A stretch of DNA of 64,000 nt, from IMG/VR virus record IMGVR_UViG_3300036853_000417, positions 1 through 64,000 of that record. One strand, written 5' to 3'. The notes beneath the pieces are model-generated. The model did no database searches. It was given only the letters and a program-made list of their open reading frames with translations, and was not told the DNA's origin. The stretch is from a virus. The translations under genes and the position numbers were made by a program. The number at the start of each line of letters is the position of its first letter. The first letter of the stretch is position 1. Shown in pieces: positions 308-54,185 of this stretch.

Positions 308-998
308 GTTGCAACGTGTCCCACAACCAGCATGGCAGTGAAACCATGTTCAGTTGTTTTGCCGGATGTTTGCCGACCACTTCTGTTGCAACGTGTCTCA
401 TAACCAGAATGGCAGTGAAACAGTTAGAGATGAGAATTGCAGAGCTTGAAGGACGAGCAGTTGCAACGTGTCTCATAACCAGAATGGCAGTGAAACCATG
501 TTCAGTTGTTTTGCCGGATGTTTGCCGACCACTTCTGTTGCAACGTGTCTCATAACCAGAATGGCAGTGAAACAGGCTTGGATACTTTGCATATAGTTCA
601 GCCATTTGCTTTGTTGCAACGTGTCCCACAACCAGAATGGCAGTGAAACCTGTTCTGGCATTAACAATCCAGCAGCAAACGCATTGTTGCAACGTTCCTC
701 ACAACCAGAATGGCAGTGAAACGCTCGTTGGTGCTGCTATCAACGGCGATGCTATCCGTTGCAACATGCCCCACAACCAGAATGGCAGTGAAACTTGCTG
801 AACGTTGGACGATCTTAGAGATAGCTCAAAGTTGCAGCATGTCTCACAACTAGCATGGCAGTGAAACTTTCAGTTACATACGCGGTGAAATGTATCACAT
901 GTCGTTGCAACCTGCCCTGCTCCTACATGGAGATGAAACGGAACACAGGATCATCTTCCCAGTTGCAACTTGCTCCACTCCCAGCATGAAGATGGAAC
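308..998 (+). CRISPR. CRISPR array 1: 10 repeats (consensus GTTGCAACGTGTCYCAYAACCAGAATGGCAGTGAAAC, 37 bp), degenerating toward the 3' end
   Basis: Repeats start at 308, 385, 460, 537, 613, 686, 758, 831, 904, 962. Spacers are 35-40 bp except the last (22 bp). Spacer 1 = spacer 3. The GAAAC 3' end and the degenerate trailer give + orientation. No cas gene in the window. Confidence 0.96.
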
Positions 999-8509: not shown

Positions 8510-8617
8510 TCAAAACTCACTCAAAACTATTCTAAAAGCCTTGACATACACATGGGTATATGTTATGATACTTTATGGGAGAAGGAAAGTACAAACAGTC
8601 ATCGAAGGGAACCGAAA
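8510..8617 (+). promoter_or_regulatory. Repeated promoter module copy 3
   Basis: CTAAAAGCC-TTGACA (8541-8546), 17 bp, TATGAT (8564-8569). Confidence 0.88.
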
Positions 8618-8692
8618 ATGAAAACCGCACAAGTAAAACGCCTGATGGAAACCTTTATTGCAACATTGCCACGGGAGCGCACTCTCAACTGA
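8618..8692 (+). pseudogene. Truncated ORF (MKTAQVKRLMETFIATL...) interrupted by CRISPR array 2
   Basis: RBS and ATG behind the promoter; the ORF runs into a partial repeat ATTGCCAC (8665-8672). Confidence 0.55.
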
Positions 8693-8711: not shown

Positions 8712-9712
8712 GTTTCAATCGCTCAGTCGCGAAAAACCTTATTGCCACTTCACTTCTAAAGTAGATTTTCTGTTGTTCTGTGTTGTTTCAATCGCTCAGT
8801 CGCGAAAAACCTTATTGCCACGCTGAGATGCTTACACGTTGCCTCAAGATCAGTTATGTTTCAATCGCTCAGTCGCGAAAAACCTTATTGCCACCCCGCT
8901 TAATAATGTAGTTCCCACGAGGCTCTTTTTCGTTTCAATCGCTCAGTCGCGAAAAACCTTATTGCCACCATTGCAGATATTGTGCTTGAGAAGTACCTGG
9001 GACAGAGTTTCAATCGCTCAGTCGCGAAAAACCTTATTGCCACCATTGCAGATATTGTGCTTGAGAAGTACCTGGGACAGAGTTTCAATCGCTCAGTCGC
9101 GAAAAACCTTATTGCCACCTTACGTCAGAAAGGGTTGCCTGAAGAAACTGCTGACGAGTTTCAATCGCTCAGTCGCGAAAAACCTTATTGCCACTTCACT
9201 TCTAAAGTAGATTTTCTGTTGTTCTGTGTTGTTTCAATCGCTCAGTCGCGAAAAACCTTATTGCCACAAGTTTCAATGCCTCCTGCCGAGGAGGTAATGG
9301 AAATGTTTCAATCGCTCAGTCGCGAAAAACCTTATTGCCACTATTCCTCGCATTGCTAGATCGAACATGAATGCGATCAGTTTCAATCGCTCAGTCGCGA
9401 AAAACCTTATTGCCACTCATAGCCTGGCGTATCCAGAATGGTGCCATCCGGTCGGTTTCAATCGCTCAGTCGCGAAAAACCTTATTGCCACTGCGCGACG
9501 TCGCGCAAATTCAAGTTGCACTGCCACCGTTTCAATCGCTCAGTCGCGAAAAACCTTATTGCCACTGCAAGGAGGTTGAAATTCATATGCTCCTCCGGTC
9601 AGTTTCAATCGCTCAGTCGCGAAAAACCTTATTGCCACAGACAGATTATGCGTCTCTCCAAGTCGGATTATTGCCGTTTCAATCGCTCAGTCGCGAAAAA
9701 CCTTATTGCCAC
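8712..9712 (-). CRISPR. CRISPR array 2: 14 identical 37-bp repeats (minus strand GTGGCAATAAGGTTTTTCGCGACTGAGCGATTGAAAC), 13 spacers plus one partial unit
   Basis: Repeats start at 8712, 8785, 8858, 8932, 9007, 9082, 9158, 9231, 9305, 9380, 9455, 9529, 9602, 9676. Spacers 36-39 bp. TCGC/GCGA stem before the ATTGAAAC handle; leader on the right. Confidence 0.98.
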
Positions 9713-9900
9713 CCCCGCCTCTCACTAGGATAGCACCACAAGCCACTTCATGCAACCCTTTGCGAGAGCCTCTTTACAGAGGAGCTTTTCGAGCCACGAT
9801 AAACGCATCCCTAAAGGGTCAAATGCGTGTTAAGTCGCTTGCAGAGTATTCCGAGAGGCTACGCTCAACACCCACACAGCCAAGCCTCTCGCAACAGGAG
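9713..9900 (-). promoter_or_regulatory. CRISPR array 2 leader
   Basis: Non-coding; inverted repeat TTGCGAGAG (9760-9768) / CTCTCGCAA (9886-9894) plus CCGAGAGG at 9851. Confidence 0.7.
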
Positions 9901-12825: not shown

Positions 12826-14539
12826 GATGCGTGTATATGAAGTTGGCAAACACTTTATCAAAGGAGCAATAACACCGGGAACCCATTTCAATTACCAAAA
12901 TGGGAGACTTGTGCTCGAACTGTATCTTGATCAACTAACAGCAAGTAATATACAGGCTATCGAGACAGGCAAATGTGAATTTGCTCTGACAATAGTTGAG
13001 GATGTTATCTTCCTCCTTTCCAGGTTCGGTACCATGTTACCGTGGTTTGATTCCCCCTATTCCATTCATCTCTTAGAAGAAGGGGACCGGATAGTCCCGC
13101 CTATTCTGGAATCAGAAGAGATGGCAGAACTCACCATATTCCTTGTGTCCTCTGAAGATGGTGTTTTGCGAGCAATCCGGCGTATTCATCTCGGCCATAC
13201 ATTTAGCGTTATGCTCTTTGATGCAATCAGAGTACAGCTCGATATGCCATTTAATAGAGAGGCATACGATAATAGAATTACCACACTTTATGGATTATAC
13301 AGCTCGAATGATCTTGCACAAATGTCCATTATACGTTGCATAGTTGATGCAAGAACAACTAAAAGAGCAAAACATATTCCTCACAAAGATAGCGATAAGC
13401 CACTTATTGAGAAGTACCTGACATACTTACGAATTGCCCATGAGGAAGCATTAGCGCGTATCAAACGTCGTACTCTATCACATGATTTGTATGATTTCAA
13501 TCTTGCGATGGCAAGATTGACCAGTCAGATTTACACCAATATGGCTGAGAAAGCCGTGAAGTATGAACTGGCTCGCAGTGGACAAAATATGACAGAGGTA
13601 CTGCGCCCCAGGCCCCTCATGAAAGAAGACATGGGGTTGCGTCATTTGATGGATATTGCTAACGAGAAATATTCCCTTGATCCAGATATCCCCACTCCTA
13701 TCTTACATATTCCAGATACGCCTATTTGGATTACGCTCGAACAACCCATCGAAATCAATACCGGACTGATAACAGGTCTCTTTTTTTGCTGTCCTGACCG
13801 TGAATTTGAAGACATGTTAAAGCAAAAACAGACAGCGGTCATGCAGCAGGTAATAAAGGAAGCAATCAAATATCCTGATGAAGACTATCGATGGAGTCTT
13901 TCCTTTATTGATTCTGATGGGGTCCCCCATTCACATTATCAGTACTATGAACAAGCACAGAAATGGGAAATTATTCCAGATAGACAGTTCGTTCCCTGTC
14001 CTACTGATAAGTGTACTTCTTATGAAGAATCTCATAAAGAAAGAAGATATCAACATATTTGCCCCTGTCCCTACTGTAGCGCGATCCTTGCTTACTGGAG
14101 GAGCTGGTTTGTTACGGCGCTTCTGGTTGTTGGTCGTGAATTTGCTGCTAATGAGGAAGAGGCATGGCCTGAGAAGACGGAGAATTATAGGAGAAAGGTG
14201 AAGCGTCCAGGGAGCGGAAAGTATGATGAAGTGCCGGTCACTCATACCTACCATTATGTCAGCTTTGACGCGTGTATAAAACGAGCATACCCTCCACAAG
14301 ATCACAAGCCTGTGTCGCGCGGCTCGTGGGTAGCAGATGCACAACAGATAGATCCTGAGAGCGTCATCTACATTCGGCGCAATTTTGGGAAGAGTGACCG
14401 CTTACTTGATCCAGAGCGAAATCCTCGATGGAAAACAAAGAGAGTTGTGCCCGTGAAAGCGCACGAGAAATGCGTGCCTATGAGAGTAGAGAGTGTGCAG
14501 AAGTACATTTACCATGTATTTGCCTCGAAGTATGAGTGA
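12815..14539 (+). CDS. Hypothetical 574-aa protein with a Cys cluster
   Basis: Long ORF; CPTDKC...ICPCPYC; family not recognised. Confidence 0.8.
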   Translation: MMGKMRVYEVGKHFIKGAITPGTHFNYQNGRLVLELYLDQLTASNIQAIETGKCEFALTIVEDVIFLLSRFGTMLPWFDSPYSIHLLEEGDRIVPPILESEEMAELTIFLVSSEDGVLRAIRRIHLGHTFSVMLFDAIRVQLDMPFNREAYDNRITTLYGLYSSNDLAQMSIIRCIVDARTTKRAKHIPHKDSDKPLIEKYLTYLRIAHEEALARIKRRTLSHDLYDFNLAMARLTSQIYTNMAEKAVKYELARSGQNMTEVLRPRPLMKEDMGLRHLMDIANEKYSLDPDIPTPILHIPDTPIWITLEQPIEINTGLITGLFFCCPDREFEDMLKQKQTAVMQQVIKEAIKYPDEDYRWSLSFIDSDGVPHSHYQYYEQAQKWEIIPDRQFVPCPTDKCTSYEESHKERRYQHICPCPYCSAILAYWRSWFVTALLVVGREFAANEEEAWPEKTENYRRKVKRPGSGKYDEVPVTHTYHYVSFDACIKRAYPPQDHKPVSRGSWVADAQQIDPESVIYIRRNFGKSDRLLDPERNPRWKTKRVVPVKAHEKCVPMRVESVQKYIYHVFASKYE

Positions 14540-14564
14540 TATAATAAGAAAGCAGGGACAGCAC

Positions 14565-15641
14565 ATGACTGAGCTTATGAGGTATGGTCAAGATCCACTG
14601 GCAGTGGCGGGTGCAATGGCAAATCAGCAGGCTGAAGAGGGCAAACTTTCACGATATCAGGAACTTCTGTCTCCTGATACTCTCAGGAGACAACGGGCAG
14701 ATCTCATGCTTTTTCAACGATATCTGGCCGAAAAGCGGAATGTGGTTCTGACAGGTCTCTTTGAAGATCTCTCAGAATGGCAGGGAATTACCTATGGACT
14801 GGTGGAGGATTACAAGCGGTGGCAGAAGGAAGAAGGATATGCACTTACCTCGGTTGCAATACGCCTGACGACTATACATGTCTATGCACGATTGGCCTTT
14901 GAAATTGGCCATATCCCTTTAGAAGAATACCTCAAGATCAAGGAGGTGAGAGGGGATAGCCAGCGGCATCGGCAGGCTATCGATGAGGGGAGACCAGTAA
15001 ATAAACGGAGGCGTCCGAATGCCAAACGCGCGGAGCCAATTATCCTATCTGCCAGCCAATGTCGCGCAATCAGGCAGGCTCTCCTGGATAAAATGAACTT
15101 CTGTACGAAATCTGAGTACTGTATGGCTGTACGAGATCTTGCCCTGTTCACCCTACTGTGTTATCAGGGCTTTCGGGTAGGGGAGGTTGTCAGGTTGTGC
15201 CGTAATGAGGTGCACTTAGATCGCGGCCTGATTATTGTGCATAGGCACAAGGTCAGGATAGAACAAAAACACGAACTTCATCCTCTAACTCTATCCGCAC
15301 TCAAAATGTATCTGGAGATAGTTAAAACACGAATATTGCTCTTTGAAGGGACAGATCGAGACCCTTGCATTCTTAATGGAAAGACATATACCGGATCGCG
15401 TGCGATTGATGGTATGGATGAGGACTCTGTTGCATATCGAATTGAAAAGTGCGGCCTGATGATTGGTATAGAGGGCCTGGCACCACATGACCTTAGACAT
15501 TCCTGGGCGAATGATTTAGCTGAGAATGGTACACCGATTGAAGTACTCAAAGAGGCGGGTGGATGGGCAACATATCAGATGCCAGAGCACTATAAAGGAA
15601 AAGCGAAAATTGCAAATAAAGGAGTCAGGCAATCTTCTTGA
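14565..15641 (+). CDS. Tyrosine recombinase/integrase
   Basis: RDLALF...GFRVGEV, PHDLRHSWA, GGW...MPEHY catalytic R-H-R-W-Y set. Confidence 0.92.
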   Translation: MTELMRYGQDPLAVAGAMANQQAEEGKLSRYQELLSPDTLRRQRADLMLFQRYLAEKRNVVLTGLFEDLSEWQGITYGLVEDYKRWQKEEGYALTSVAIRLTTIHVYARLAFEIGHIPLEEYLKIKEVRGDSQRHRQAIDEGRPVNKRRRPNAKRAEPIILSASQCRAIRQALLDKMNFCTKSEYCMAVRDLALFTLLCYQGFRVGEVVRLCRNEVHLDRGLIIVHRHKVRIEQKHELHPLTLSALKMYLEIVKTRILLFEGTDRDPCILNGKTYTGSRAIDGMDEDSVAYRIEKCGLMIGIEGLAPHDLRHSWANDLAENGTPIEVLKEAGGWATYQMPEHYKGKAKIANKGVRQSS

Positions 15642-17274: not shown

Positions 17275-17628
17275 CATGTTACGATTTGCAGGAGGAAGAA
17301 AAAGTCACCTAGCGACCAACTAGGTGACACATGTAAGTTTATATAATACTTTTTTCAGTTTTAGTGCGATGTAGATCCTAAATATTGGGATTCAATGATG
17401 TAGTTTTTGATAATTATGTAAGGTAATGCCTCTCCTGAAGCGGTTTTCCCTGATGGGAGAAAATGAGGATTACATCAGATAATTGTACGATTTTGCCATC
17501 ACTGAATCCGAACATTTACAGGATATCCCCGAACTCTTGCAGCACTTCAGCAATATCATCAATGGCTTGAAAGAATGAAGTTGCCAACTCTGTAGAAAAG
17601 AAAGCAATATTTTAGGAGAAAAAATTCC

Positions 17629-18048
17629 ATGCCGAATAATCAGCTATCAAAACGCGCCCGTACCTTTCTACAAAAACGTAATTTTGCTGTTCTTGCTACT
17701 CACAATGCTGATGGCTCTATTCAGCAGACTACCATGTGGTATTTGCTAAAGGAAGATGGCGAGACAATTGTGATGAATACCAAGGTTGGGCGGTTGAAAG
17801 AGCGGAATATGCGGAATAACCCACAGGTTTCTTTGTGTATCCAATGTAGATATGAGTATGTCACCATTGCCGGTACTGTTACCTTCATTGATGATCCGGT
17901 TATCGGGCAGCGTGATATTCGTAAGCTGGCAGAGCATTACGATGGCAAGCAATCCGCAGCGAAGCAAATGAGAACCCGTTTTTCAAAAGAGAAGAGAGTG
18001 AGTTTACATCTGAAGTTTGAGCGAGTATATGAGTATTTTTCTCAGTGA
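17629..18048 (+). CDS. PPOX-class putative F420-dependent oxidoreductase
   Basis: AVLATHNADGS..TTMWY...GRLKERNMRNNPQVSLC split-barrel motif. Confidence 0.88.
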   Translation: MPNNQLSKRARTFLQKRNFAVLATHNADGSIQQTTMWYLLKEDGETIVMNTKVGRLKERNMRNNPQVSLCIQCRYEYVTIAGTVTFIDDPVIGQRDIRKLAEHYDGKQSAAKQMRTRFSKEKRVSLHLKFERVYEYFSQ

Positions 18049-45917: not shown

Positions 45918-45926
45918 TTATTCATA

Positions 45927-45970
45927 CAAAAAGGAACCAGAGCATCAAATAATCTCTCTGGTTCCTTTTT
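45927..45970. terminator. Bidirectional terminator
   Basis: AAAAGGAACCAGAG...CTCTGGTTCCTTTTT. Confidence 0.75.
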
Positions 45971-45999
45971 GACTTTCAAGCCCAATAGGGGTTTTTCAT

Positions 46000-46388
46000 C
46001 GTGTCGGGTCAGGAGACCCCCGTCATTTATGCGGGAGAGGAATGACCCTTCCTTTCTTTGGTGGATAGGGTGGGGATTCCCACCTACGCTCAAGTCCCCT
46101 TGCGGGGAGCCGTTTTTGTCGGAACGGTTAAACCGTTGGCGGATTGCCGCCCACCGTGTCCAGGCACGGGTGATATAACCCTTCGTGGTTGCAATACAGG
46201 CTTAGCTATGAATGTATCCATAACATCGCTTTCGGCGTGAGTAGAAGAGGTCCGAGTTAGGGTGGCGCTCGGACATTCTTGTAGCCCGTACCGCTGCTGA
46301 CTGTTCACAAGAACAAAGCCCACTAGTCACAAACTTACGTTGCGCTGGCCGTTTCGCAAGCCCCGTCATTTCTGGCGGGGTTCATGAC
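46000..46388 (-). mobile_element. Non-autonomous IS200/IS605 (IscB/IsrB-type) element carrying an omega-RNA/HEARO-like scaffold, no nuclease ORF
   Basis: Minus strand begins GTCATGAACCCCGCCAGAAATGACGGGGCTTG...GTGACTAG...CCACCCTAACTCGGACCTCT...CCACGAAGGG. It ends ATTCCTCTCCCGCATAAATGACGGGGGTCTCCTGACCC followed by ATGA. Both ends carry related hairpins. Confidence 0.75.
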
Positions 46389-46533
46389 ATCACTTGGCTT
46401 GATGTATGCAAAAGTTTCAACCCTGTTCAGGTTGCCATCGAGAAGGAAATCGCCATTGAATTCCTTCTCGGCGGAGTTGTTTGACCGGTGATTAACTCAT
46501 CATACCATACAACTCAACAACACGCAAGAGTAT

Positions 46534-53538: not shown

Positions 53539-53672
53539 ATGCGTTCACTATTGCTTCCTGCCAAAAAAACCGTGTCGTCGGTAGTAAGAAATCGCCAATC
53601 GAACACGTGTCACAAAATCAGCAAAAAATGTTCTCATGCATTCAATCTCCTTTCAGAAAGGAGTATAGCACA

Positions 53673-54185
53673 ATGGGCATAGCTACATCTCTCTATGCCG
53701 TTGGAGATGCGATAGATCCCTCCCTCTCCTACTGGAGTGTCCTTTTGACGACTGGCAAAACATGGTCAGAACGTCAACTTGTACCAACGTGGACAAAGGG
53801 CCAGAGGGGATTGCGCAAGCTTGATTGGGGAGAGGATTTAGTAAGCACCGGGGATATCCACCGTATAAAAGAAATCACACTCCATTGTCCTGATGGAGGA
53901 ACGGCAGTCCTGGAAGTCCCTGAGCGGAGTACCGCGTTTCAATTTAAGACACGCAGCCTCAATATGCTTGGCGCAAGTGGCAATGACCTGGAATTTCAGG
54001 TTATTGGTCGTGTGGTTGACAAGACAACAGGACGATGTGAGTGCTTTATCTGGGATTACCGACCACTCCCAGGAGAGAAAAATCTCATAGCGTATAAATC
54101 GAGTATATACAACTTTGGTGCATGGAGAAACACTATCACACCTATTGGTGCACTAGGTATTGAAGTACAGGGTTTCCGTTTATGA
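53673..54185 (+). CDS. Hypothetical protein
   Basis: ATG after AAGGAG. Confidence 0.7.
   Translation: MGIATSLYAVGDAIDPSLSYWSVLLTTGKTWSERQLVPTWTKGQRGLRKLDWGEDLVSTGDIHRIKEITLHCPDGGTAVLEVPERSTAFQFKTRSLNMLGASGNDLEFQVIGRVVDKTTGRCECFIWDYRPLPGEKNLIAYKSSIYNFGAWRNTITPIGALGIEVQGFRL

Follow-up and report, generated by a model that had tools for sequence, protein, structure and literature searches.

Can a spacer of a CRISPR array itself be a CRISPR repeat, and what would such a spacer do in the genome of a phage? This question is raised by one spacer, here called S8, of the second array on a virus record from IMG/VR. The first-pass annotation had read S8 as a complete foreign repeat and had offered two explanations, namely a guide that targets every repeat of another array, or a repeat mimic of the RNA anti-CRISPR (Racr) kind that is embedded in an array and released by processing. 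The window that we analysed comprises the first 64 kb of the record, which is 82,150 bp long, and the remaining part was consulted for the features at the right terminus.

The phage and its CRISPR arrays

The record belongs to a temperate phage with a tail. A large terminase, a portal, a prohead protease/major head protein, a tyrosine integrase, and a ParB-methylase were identified by comparison with Pfam and PHROG. Its relatives are distant only, as TerL shares at most 37% identity with that of any deposited phage. Five relatives were found for a neighbouring gene, and the locus of one of them (L121) is a mosaic with 58% GC and without an array. TerC look-alikes vaguely hint at a host in the Chloroflexota, Cyanobacteriota, or Bacillota. 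The public sequencing runs that share any part of the window are soil metagenomes only; none of the runs listed is recorded as RNA, and two soil runs contain just small portions of the window.

Three full arrays and one mini CRISPR-like unit are carried by the phage (Table 1). Genes of the Cas1, Cas6, and RAMP families are not encoded anywhere in the 82-kb record, and the arrays must therefore rely on host proteins. The leader of array 1 is placed on the left because its R2 repeats become degenerate towards the right. The array at the right end of the record is an inverted twin of array 1. Their first repeat, oldest spacer, and degenerate trailer are the same, as is the leader except for an indel of 7 nt, whereas the newer spacers differ; the exact terminal inverted repeat of the record measures only about 127 nt. 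Either both arrays acquired spacers independently on the phage, or the ends of two strains were joined in assembly.

Array 2, which contains S8, is built of units of 73-76 nt with a modal length of 74 nt. Its leader is placed on the right, since a degenerate repeat relic lies at the left end. A comparison of the leaders of arrays 1 and 2 revealed no similarity, and a comparison of R1 with Rfam gave weak matches to DR2 and DR6 only. The strong sigma-70-type promoter on the trailer side belongs to a 64-nt promoter cassette that is present four times and forms the repeated promoter family of this phage (D10).

Table 1. Positions of the features discussed, numbered along the window unless the record is named
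Feature	Position	Strand	Description
Array 1	308-998	+	Ten 36-37-nt repeats (R2, ending GTGAAAC), degenerate towards the right; about 300 nt from the genome end
Promoter, sigma-70 type	8541-8569	+	11/12 consensus positions, extended -10; points into array 2 from the trailer side
Degenerate repeat relic	8622-8672	minus	Left (trailer) end of array 2
Array 2	8712-9712	minus (favoured)	14 identical 37-nt repeats (R1), 13 spacers of 36-39 nt
Spacer S8	9268-9304	minus	37 nt, made of the 35-nt repeat-like core R3 (9270-9304) and 2 nt (9268-9269)
Tag of S8, ATTGAAAC	9270-9277	minus	One base (C) after the hairpin, followed by TT; identical to the last 8 nt of R1
Hairpin of S8	9279-9294	minus	Perfect 6-bp CCTCCT/AGGAGG stem, 4-nt loop CGGC
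Integrase	14493-15641		Marks the phage as temperate
Mini-unit	45925-46530	minus	Promoter to terminator; predicted from sequence to be a discrete small transcription unit
Partial repeat of the mini-unit	45973-45994	minus	Short hairpin and CTTGAAAG
Repeat R4	46414-46450	minus	37-nt repeat; starts ATTTCC, ends TTGAAAC; 6-bp hairpin overlaps the tag
Third array (right end)	record 81375-81850 (L002 about 17375-17850)	minus	Right terminus, outside the window; inverted twin of array 1

Anatomy of spacer S8

The repeats that bracket S8 (9231-9267 and 9305-9341) are both intact and perfect. S8 lies between them with a length that falls within the narrow range of the array, and its unit of 74 nt has the modal length. 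A unit of modal length and perfect neighbours fit ruler-measured integration, and for this reason S8 was treated as an acquired spacer.

Read on the minus strand, S8 begins with ATTTCC. Its core, R3, has the anatomy of a Cas6-type repeat of 35 nt, in which a hairpin stands 1 nt upstream of an 8-nt 3' tag and the two ends are partly complementary (6 of 8 positions, the same value as in R1). The tag is a rare sequence, with just two occurrences of ATTGAAAC outside array 2 in 164 kb counted over both strands, and S8 as a whole occurs a single time in the 82-kb record. The annotation had also stated that S8 is distinct from the repeats of both arrays, and the alignments bear this out: counted from the 3' end, R3 agrees with R1 at 14/35 positions and with R2 at 13/35. 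The last 11 nt of R3 agree with R2 at 10/11 positions and with R1 at 9/11. Self-targeting was not seen, as at three or fewer mismatches only S8 itself matches in the record, and the best ungapped match elsewhere in the phage (22/37) is at shuffle level.

The probability of this anatomy was estimated for a random 37-mer of matching base composition. A tag no more than 2 nt from the end has p = 7e-5, a perfect stem of at least 6 bp adjoining the tag has p = 4e-3, and an (A/G)TTTC start has p = 7e-3. The joint chance of tag, stem, and start is about 2e-9 per spacer. The repeat features that the annotation had recognized in S8, from the (A/G)TTTC start through the 6-bp stem and the 4-nt loop to the tag at the end, were confirmed, and these statistics back them. 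As a cross-check, IMG/VR sites were chosen for similar termini only, and among the matches listed such a stem was present in 1 of 117. Given the joint probability, the match of the 3' end to R2 and R1, and the complementary ends, S8 is not a chance look-alike of a repeat.

A mini CRISPR-like unit in the same phage

The mini-unit begins with the promoter-like TGGTATGAT, which the consensus promoter scan did not detect. It is followed by a 10-bp leader-repeat hairpin, in which the leader of the unit pairs with the start of R4, then by R4 itself, and by 28 nt and ATGAA. An omega-RNA mini-transposon is inserted at this ATGAA site, and a partial repeat and a strong terminator (-28.3 kcal/mol, z -5.4) complete the unit. 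The mini-unit has the appearance of an RNA gene of the crRNA-like or Racr-like kind, with a putative fourth repeat type.

R4 has 7/8 of the first 8 nt and all of the last 7 nt (TTGAAAC) in common with R3. A global alignment of the two repeats scores 17; random windows score -10.4 +/- 6.3, and a fraction of 5e-5 of them reaches 17. The pattern of end motifs was found in S8, in R4, and at one other site only in 164 kb, where 0.044 sites are expected. Judged by these sequences, the ATTTCC...TTGAAAC repeat class belongs to the own repertoire of the phage. The middle parts of R4 and S8 differ, and S8 therefore cannot target R4.

The presence of R4, with the same two end motifs in the same phage, backs the anatomy claimed for S8 independently, and together with the chance statistics it makes the repeat nature of S8 a well supported reading of the sequence. 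What the analysis shows directly is the anatomy of S8 with these statistics, its normal spacer length between two intact repeats, and the occurrence of its repeat class elsewhere in the phage.

The strand of the crRNA

The crRNA of array 2 is more probably read from the minus strand, on account of the geometry of tag and hairpin and of the degenerate relic at the left end. On this strand of R1, a 4-bp hairpin abuts ATTGAAAC. The only consensus promoter near array 2 reads in from the opposite side, and its transcript would be antisense to the pre-crRNA, except if array 2 is in fact expressed from the plus strand. As RNA, the plus strand of S8 forms the more stable fold, with 13 pairs, two of them G-U (-16.8 kcal/mol, z -4.9), compared with -9.2 kcal/mol (z -1.9) for the minus strand. 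The identity of R1 on the minus strand to R2 on the plus strand is 19/37, compared with 16/37 in the opposite orientation, which hardly discriminates between the strands. The strand of the coding potential of the spacers was uninformative as to the orientation of the array.

Search for the donor of S8

A set of loosened patterns of the 35-mer gave 0 matches in IMG/VR, in 185,579 species represented by a single genome each (GTDB), and in JGI metagenomes. In the loosened patterns, either the positions of the loop and the stem flanks were left free, or only the hairpin and the tag, or only the 5' part and the hairpin, were retained; the patterns were validated on the window. A pattern of the ends only returned, among the matches listed in IMG/VR, single chance-level sites and no arrays. 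S8 and the whole of array 2 were also compared with INPHARED and PLSDB by blastn, which gave single matches of 17-20 nt only (E at least 0.4). S8 matched no CRISPR-DR family of Rfam and had no match in a string search of the literature, and blastn found no match in INPHARED or PLSDB for protospacers of the other spacers of this phage.

The genuine repeats of the phage served as a control, and R1 and R2 likewise gave 0 matches in the same collections. The lack of a match to R3 therefore carries little weight, and the same applies to the periodic copies of R3, none of which was found in collections that lack R1 and R2 as well. Cognate Cas proteins for R1 and R2 must exist, and the absence of both repeats means that the host community is simply not sampled in these collections. 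The search with the 35-mer had been set as a check by the first-pass annotation. A repeat family to which S8 belongs, in an array or as a solitary repeat, was not found in the collections searched, and neither was the single-copy coding protospacer that had been named as the counter-case.

Origin and possible roles of S8

We infer the donor of S8, the strand of its crRNA, and any interference from the features described above. With moderate confidence we propose that S8 was acquired as a spacer, that its sequence stems from a foreign array, mini-array, or solitary repeat, and that it would guide attack on DNA that carries this sequence. The adaptation machinery of the host would have inserted S8 into the cas-less, phage-borne array 2. 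Its protospacer would have been one copy of a third Cas6-type repeat, R3, of the class 5'-ATTTCC ... hairpin ... TTGAAAC-3'. The donor would most likely be the array, mini-array, or solitary repeat of a rival phage and less likely an array of the host; relatives of this phage would carry such repeat sequences, some of them at DNA ends. The processed S8 crRNA would find its complement in each DNA copy of R3 and would steer the host effector against the array or decoy. S8 covers the repeat almost exactly in register, for which the a priori chance is about 4%. Such a match would call for selective picking of the case, or for a PAM within the first bases of a 37-nt repeat.

The same anatomy could serve at the RNA level. 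R3 in the pre-crRNA would then be bound and cut by a Cas6 that recognizes its repeat class and would jam a second CRISPR system of the host, as a Racr-like decoy inside the array; we regard this as unlikely. In the detailed form of this idea, which we find equally doubtful, a cut 8 nt from the end would titrate Cas6 and the backbone subunits and would free a near-spacerless RNA that consists of the tag, 2 nt, and R1. Racrs act via the binding of Cas6 and Cas7 (PMC10651486), and with R4 the phage already possesses a candidate repeat mimic or mini-array of this class, which would be transcribed on its own. [quoted passage not shown] R3 is also sense-oriented if array 2 is read on the minus strand, but any captured repeat has an even chance of lying in this orientation. 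Further points against the decoy are that S8 is a single copy without a promoter of its own, that the exact length and the placement of S8 speak for ordinary acquisition as a spacer, and that transcription from the only consensus promoter would give the antisense strand. It is quite unlikely that a decoy for a second CRISPR system is deliberately kept in an array that is processed by the first, where it would disable effector complexes together with the R4 RNA. Cas6 would in that case cut at R3 and at the next R1, and the resulting tag-plus-repeat RNA would be almost guide-less. Capture of S8 could also be a neutral by-product, sampled from another array of the same host cell, for example during the prophage state, although this is improbable in our estimate. 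Since the phage is temperate, its arrays can reside in a cell with adaptation genes, and a tag identical to that of R1 in a 3' part that resembles R1 and R2 fits co-resident systems. On this view the spacer would have persisted because it is harmless, either for want of a PAM or in a type III system that needs an antisense transcript; as read from the sequence, the S8 crRNA would pair only with the antisense strand of the R3 transcript. However, self-derived spacers are rare, and nothing separates a self-derived capture from a capture from a rival element.

Two further explanations were considered. On the plus strand, S8 can be read as the start of a phage gene, with TTCAAT, a hairpin that hides the Shine-Dalgarno (SD) sequence AGGAGG, and ATG 8 nt later. 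S8 would then derive from an ordinary protospacer and its likeness to a repeat would be accidental, which seems to us rather improbable. The hairpin of the plus strand is the stronger one (-16.8 kcal/mol); the phage's own start at 53683 is alike, with TTCAAT, a 7-bp anti-SD/SD hairpin at 53647-53663, and ATG 9 nt on; and another spacer of array 2 (9566-9601) also contains an SD sequence and ATG. Against this stand the facts that the last G of the ATG belongs to the next repeat, that only about three such hairpins exist in 82 kb, and that S8 has no above-chance DNA or peptide match to the genome of this phage. A gene start would also leave unexplained the exact 8-mer tag at the edge of the unit, the agreement of 10/11 with the end of R2, and the ATTTCC that is common with R4. 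Lastly, S8 could be a rearrangement scar, in which recombination at shared GTTTCAAT ends trapped a hybrid repeat or a piece of another array. Array 2 has indeed recombined, as two of its spacers are duplicated, and on the plus strand S8 has, directly after 'AA', the same 8 nt with which R1 begins. Yet two precise junctions would be needed to arrive at the modal unit length exactly, the repeats on either side are perfect, and the alignment of S8 with R1 is poor beyond the shared 8-mer, so that a scar is highly improbable.

Relation to known systems

Viruses can carry CRISPR arrays and mini-arrays without cas genes, which serve virus-virus conflicts (PMC11656645). The arrays studied here resemble them in being phage-borne, in the absence of Cas1, Cas6, and RAMP genes from the record, in their need for host Cas proteins, and in the lack of a self-match. 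They differ in that S8 would copy a CRISPR repeat and not a gene of a rival, and in that this phage has three full arrays and a mini-unit. RNA anti-CRISPRs and viral solitary repeat units were described by Camara-Wilpert et al. 2023 (PMC10651486). Like a Racr, S8 is a phage-borne repeat look-alike with a hairpin and a flank that Cas6 would read. The proposal of a Racr-like mimic keeps this much of its basis but fails on the solitary, separately promoted format, because S8 is an exact-length spacer embedded in a different array, with no promoter inside or adjoining it. The R4 unit fits the solitary or mini-array format of Racrs better than S8 does. A repeat-like protospacer could also come from elements such as phage phiAP1.1, which integrates into CRISPR repeats, or Tn7-like elements, which target arrays (PMC11837452). 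These elements carry or recognise repeat-identical sequences and form a possible class of donors; unlike them, S8 has no attachment site or transposon end in it or nearby.

Taken as a spacer copied from a foreign element, S8 joins two known kinds, virus-borne arrays and repeat mimics, in a variant form. In Escherichia, Touchon and Rocha are reported to have described, in 2010, 'anti-CRISPR' arrays whose spacers target cas genes. In both cases the spacer of one array would be aimed at a component of another CRISPR system; the Escherichia spacers have cas genes on the chromosome as targets, whereas S8 would match the repeat itself and stands on a phage-borne array. If S8 was captured from the array or decoy of another element, it would be a natural record of CRISPR-bearing elements that attack each other's CRISPR sequences. 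As a target, a repeat has the appeal of being multi-copy and of having little room to escape by mutation, since changes would cost it its function. Should S8 act as RNA instead, it would represent a repeat mimic that can be delivered from inside an array. With its twin arrays at the ends, a third array, and a mini-unit, all without cas genes, the phage offers a compact system for how viruses exploit the CRISPR machinery of their hosts.

Further observations on the arrays

Duplicated spacers are present in array 1 (345-384 = 497-536), in array 2 (8749-8784 = 9195-9230 and 8969-9006 = 9044-9081), and in the right-end array, which points to repeated recombination within the arrays. A duplicated spacer of the right-end array (record 81630-81738; L002 about 17630-17738) starts with TTTGAAAC, followed by CGTGCAACG. 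This succession reads like the end of a repeat beside the start of another and is not significant when taken alone (tail 0.05).

To the right of array 2, the non-coding stretch 9721-9894 is 90-96% identical to look-alikes in contigs that come from two soil runs. There, a different sequence, with the hairpin TCCCTTTGAAAGGGA, precedes the look-alike at the place where array 2 would stand, and relatives may thus lack array 2 at this site. A site at 53640-53685 has, on the minus strand, a hairpin and then ATTGAATG, just upstream of tRNA-Ile(tat); its likeness to S8 is not statistically solid.

Several candidates for additional repeat-like spacers in array 2 were rejected. The likeness of S8 to the spacer at 9566-9601 (TTTCAA and CCTCCT) has a score that 1% of random windows reach, and it is not significant over 32 comparisons. 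Fragments similar to R2 appeared enriched in array-2 spacers, with 3 of 21 scoring at least 18 where 0.45 are expected (p about 0.01, uncorrected), and this result fails correction. The spacer at 9492-9528, read on the minus strand, was considered as a foreign repeat-spacer junction, as it starts with 11/14 of the 3' end of R2; its tail of 0.0067 fails over 21 spacers. In this spacer, the R2-like start is followed by a perfect 16-nt palindrome.

The other spacers of the phage have no above-chance DNA or peptide match in its own genome, with the sole borderline exception of the array-1 spacer at 574-612. Its minus-strand translation, KQMAELYAKYPS, resembles the phage-encoded KQLADVFAEIPS (record about 77941), with a BLOSUM score of 37 against a shuffle maximum of 32, which is borderline. 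This resemblance hints that the spacer may target a homologous gene of a related phage.
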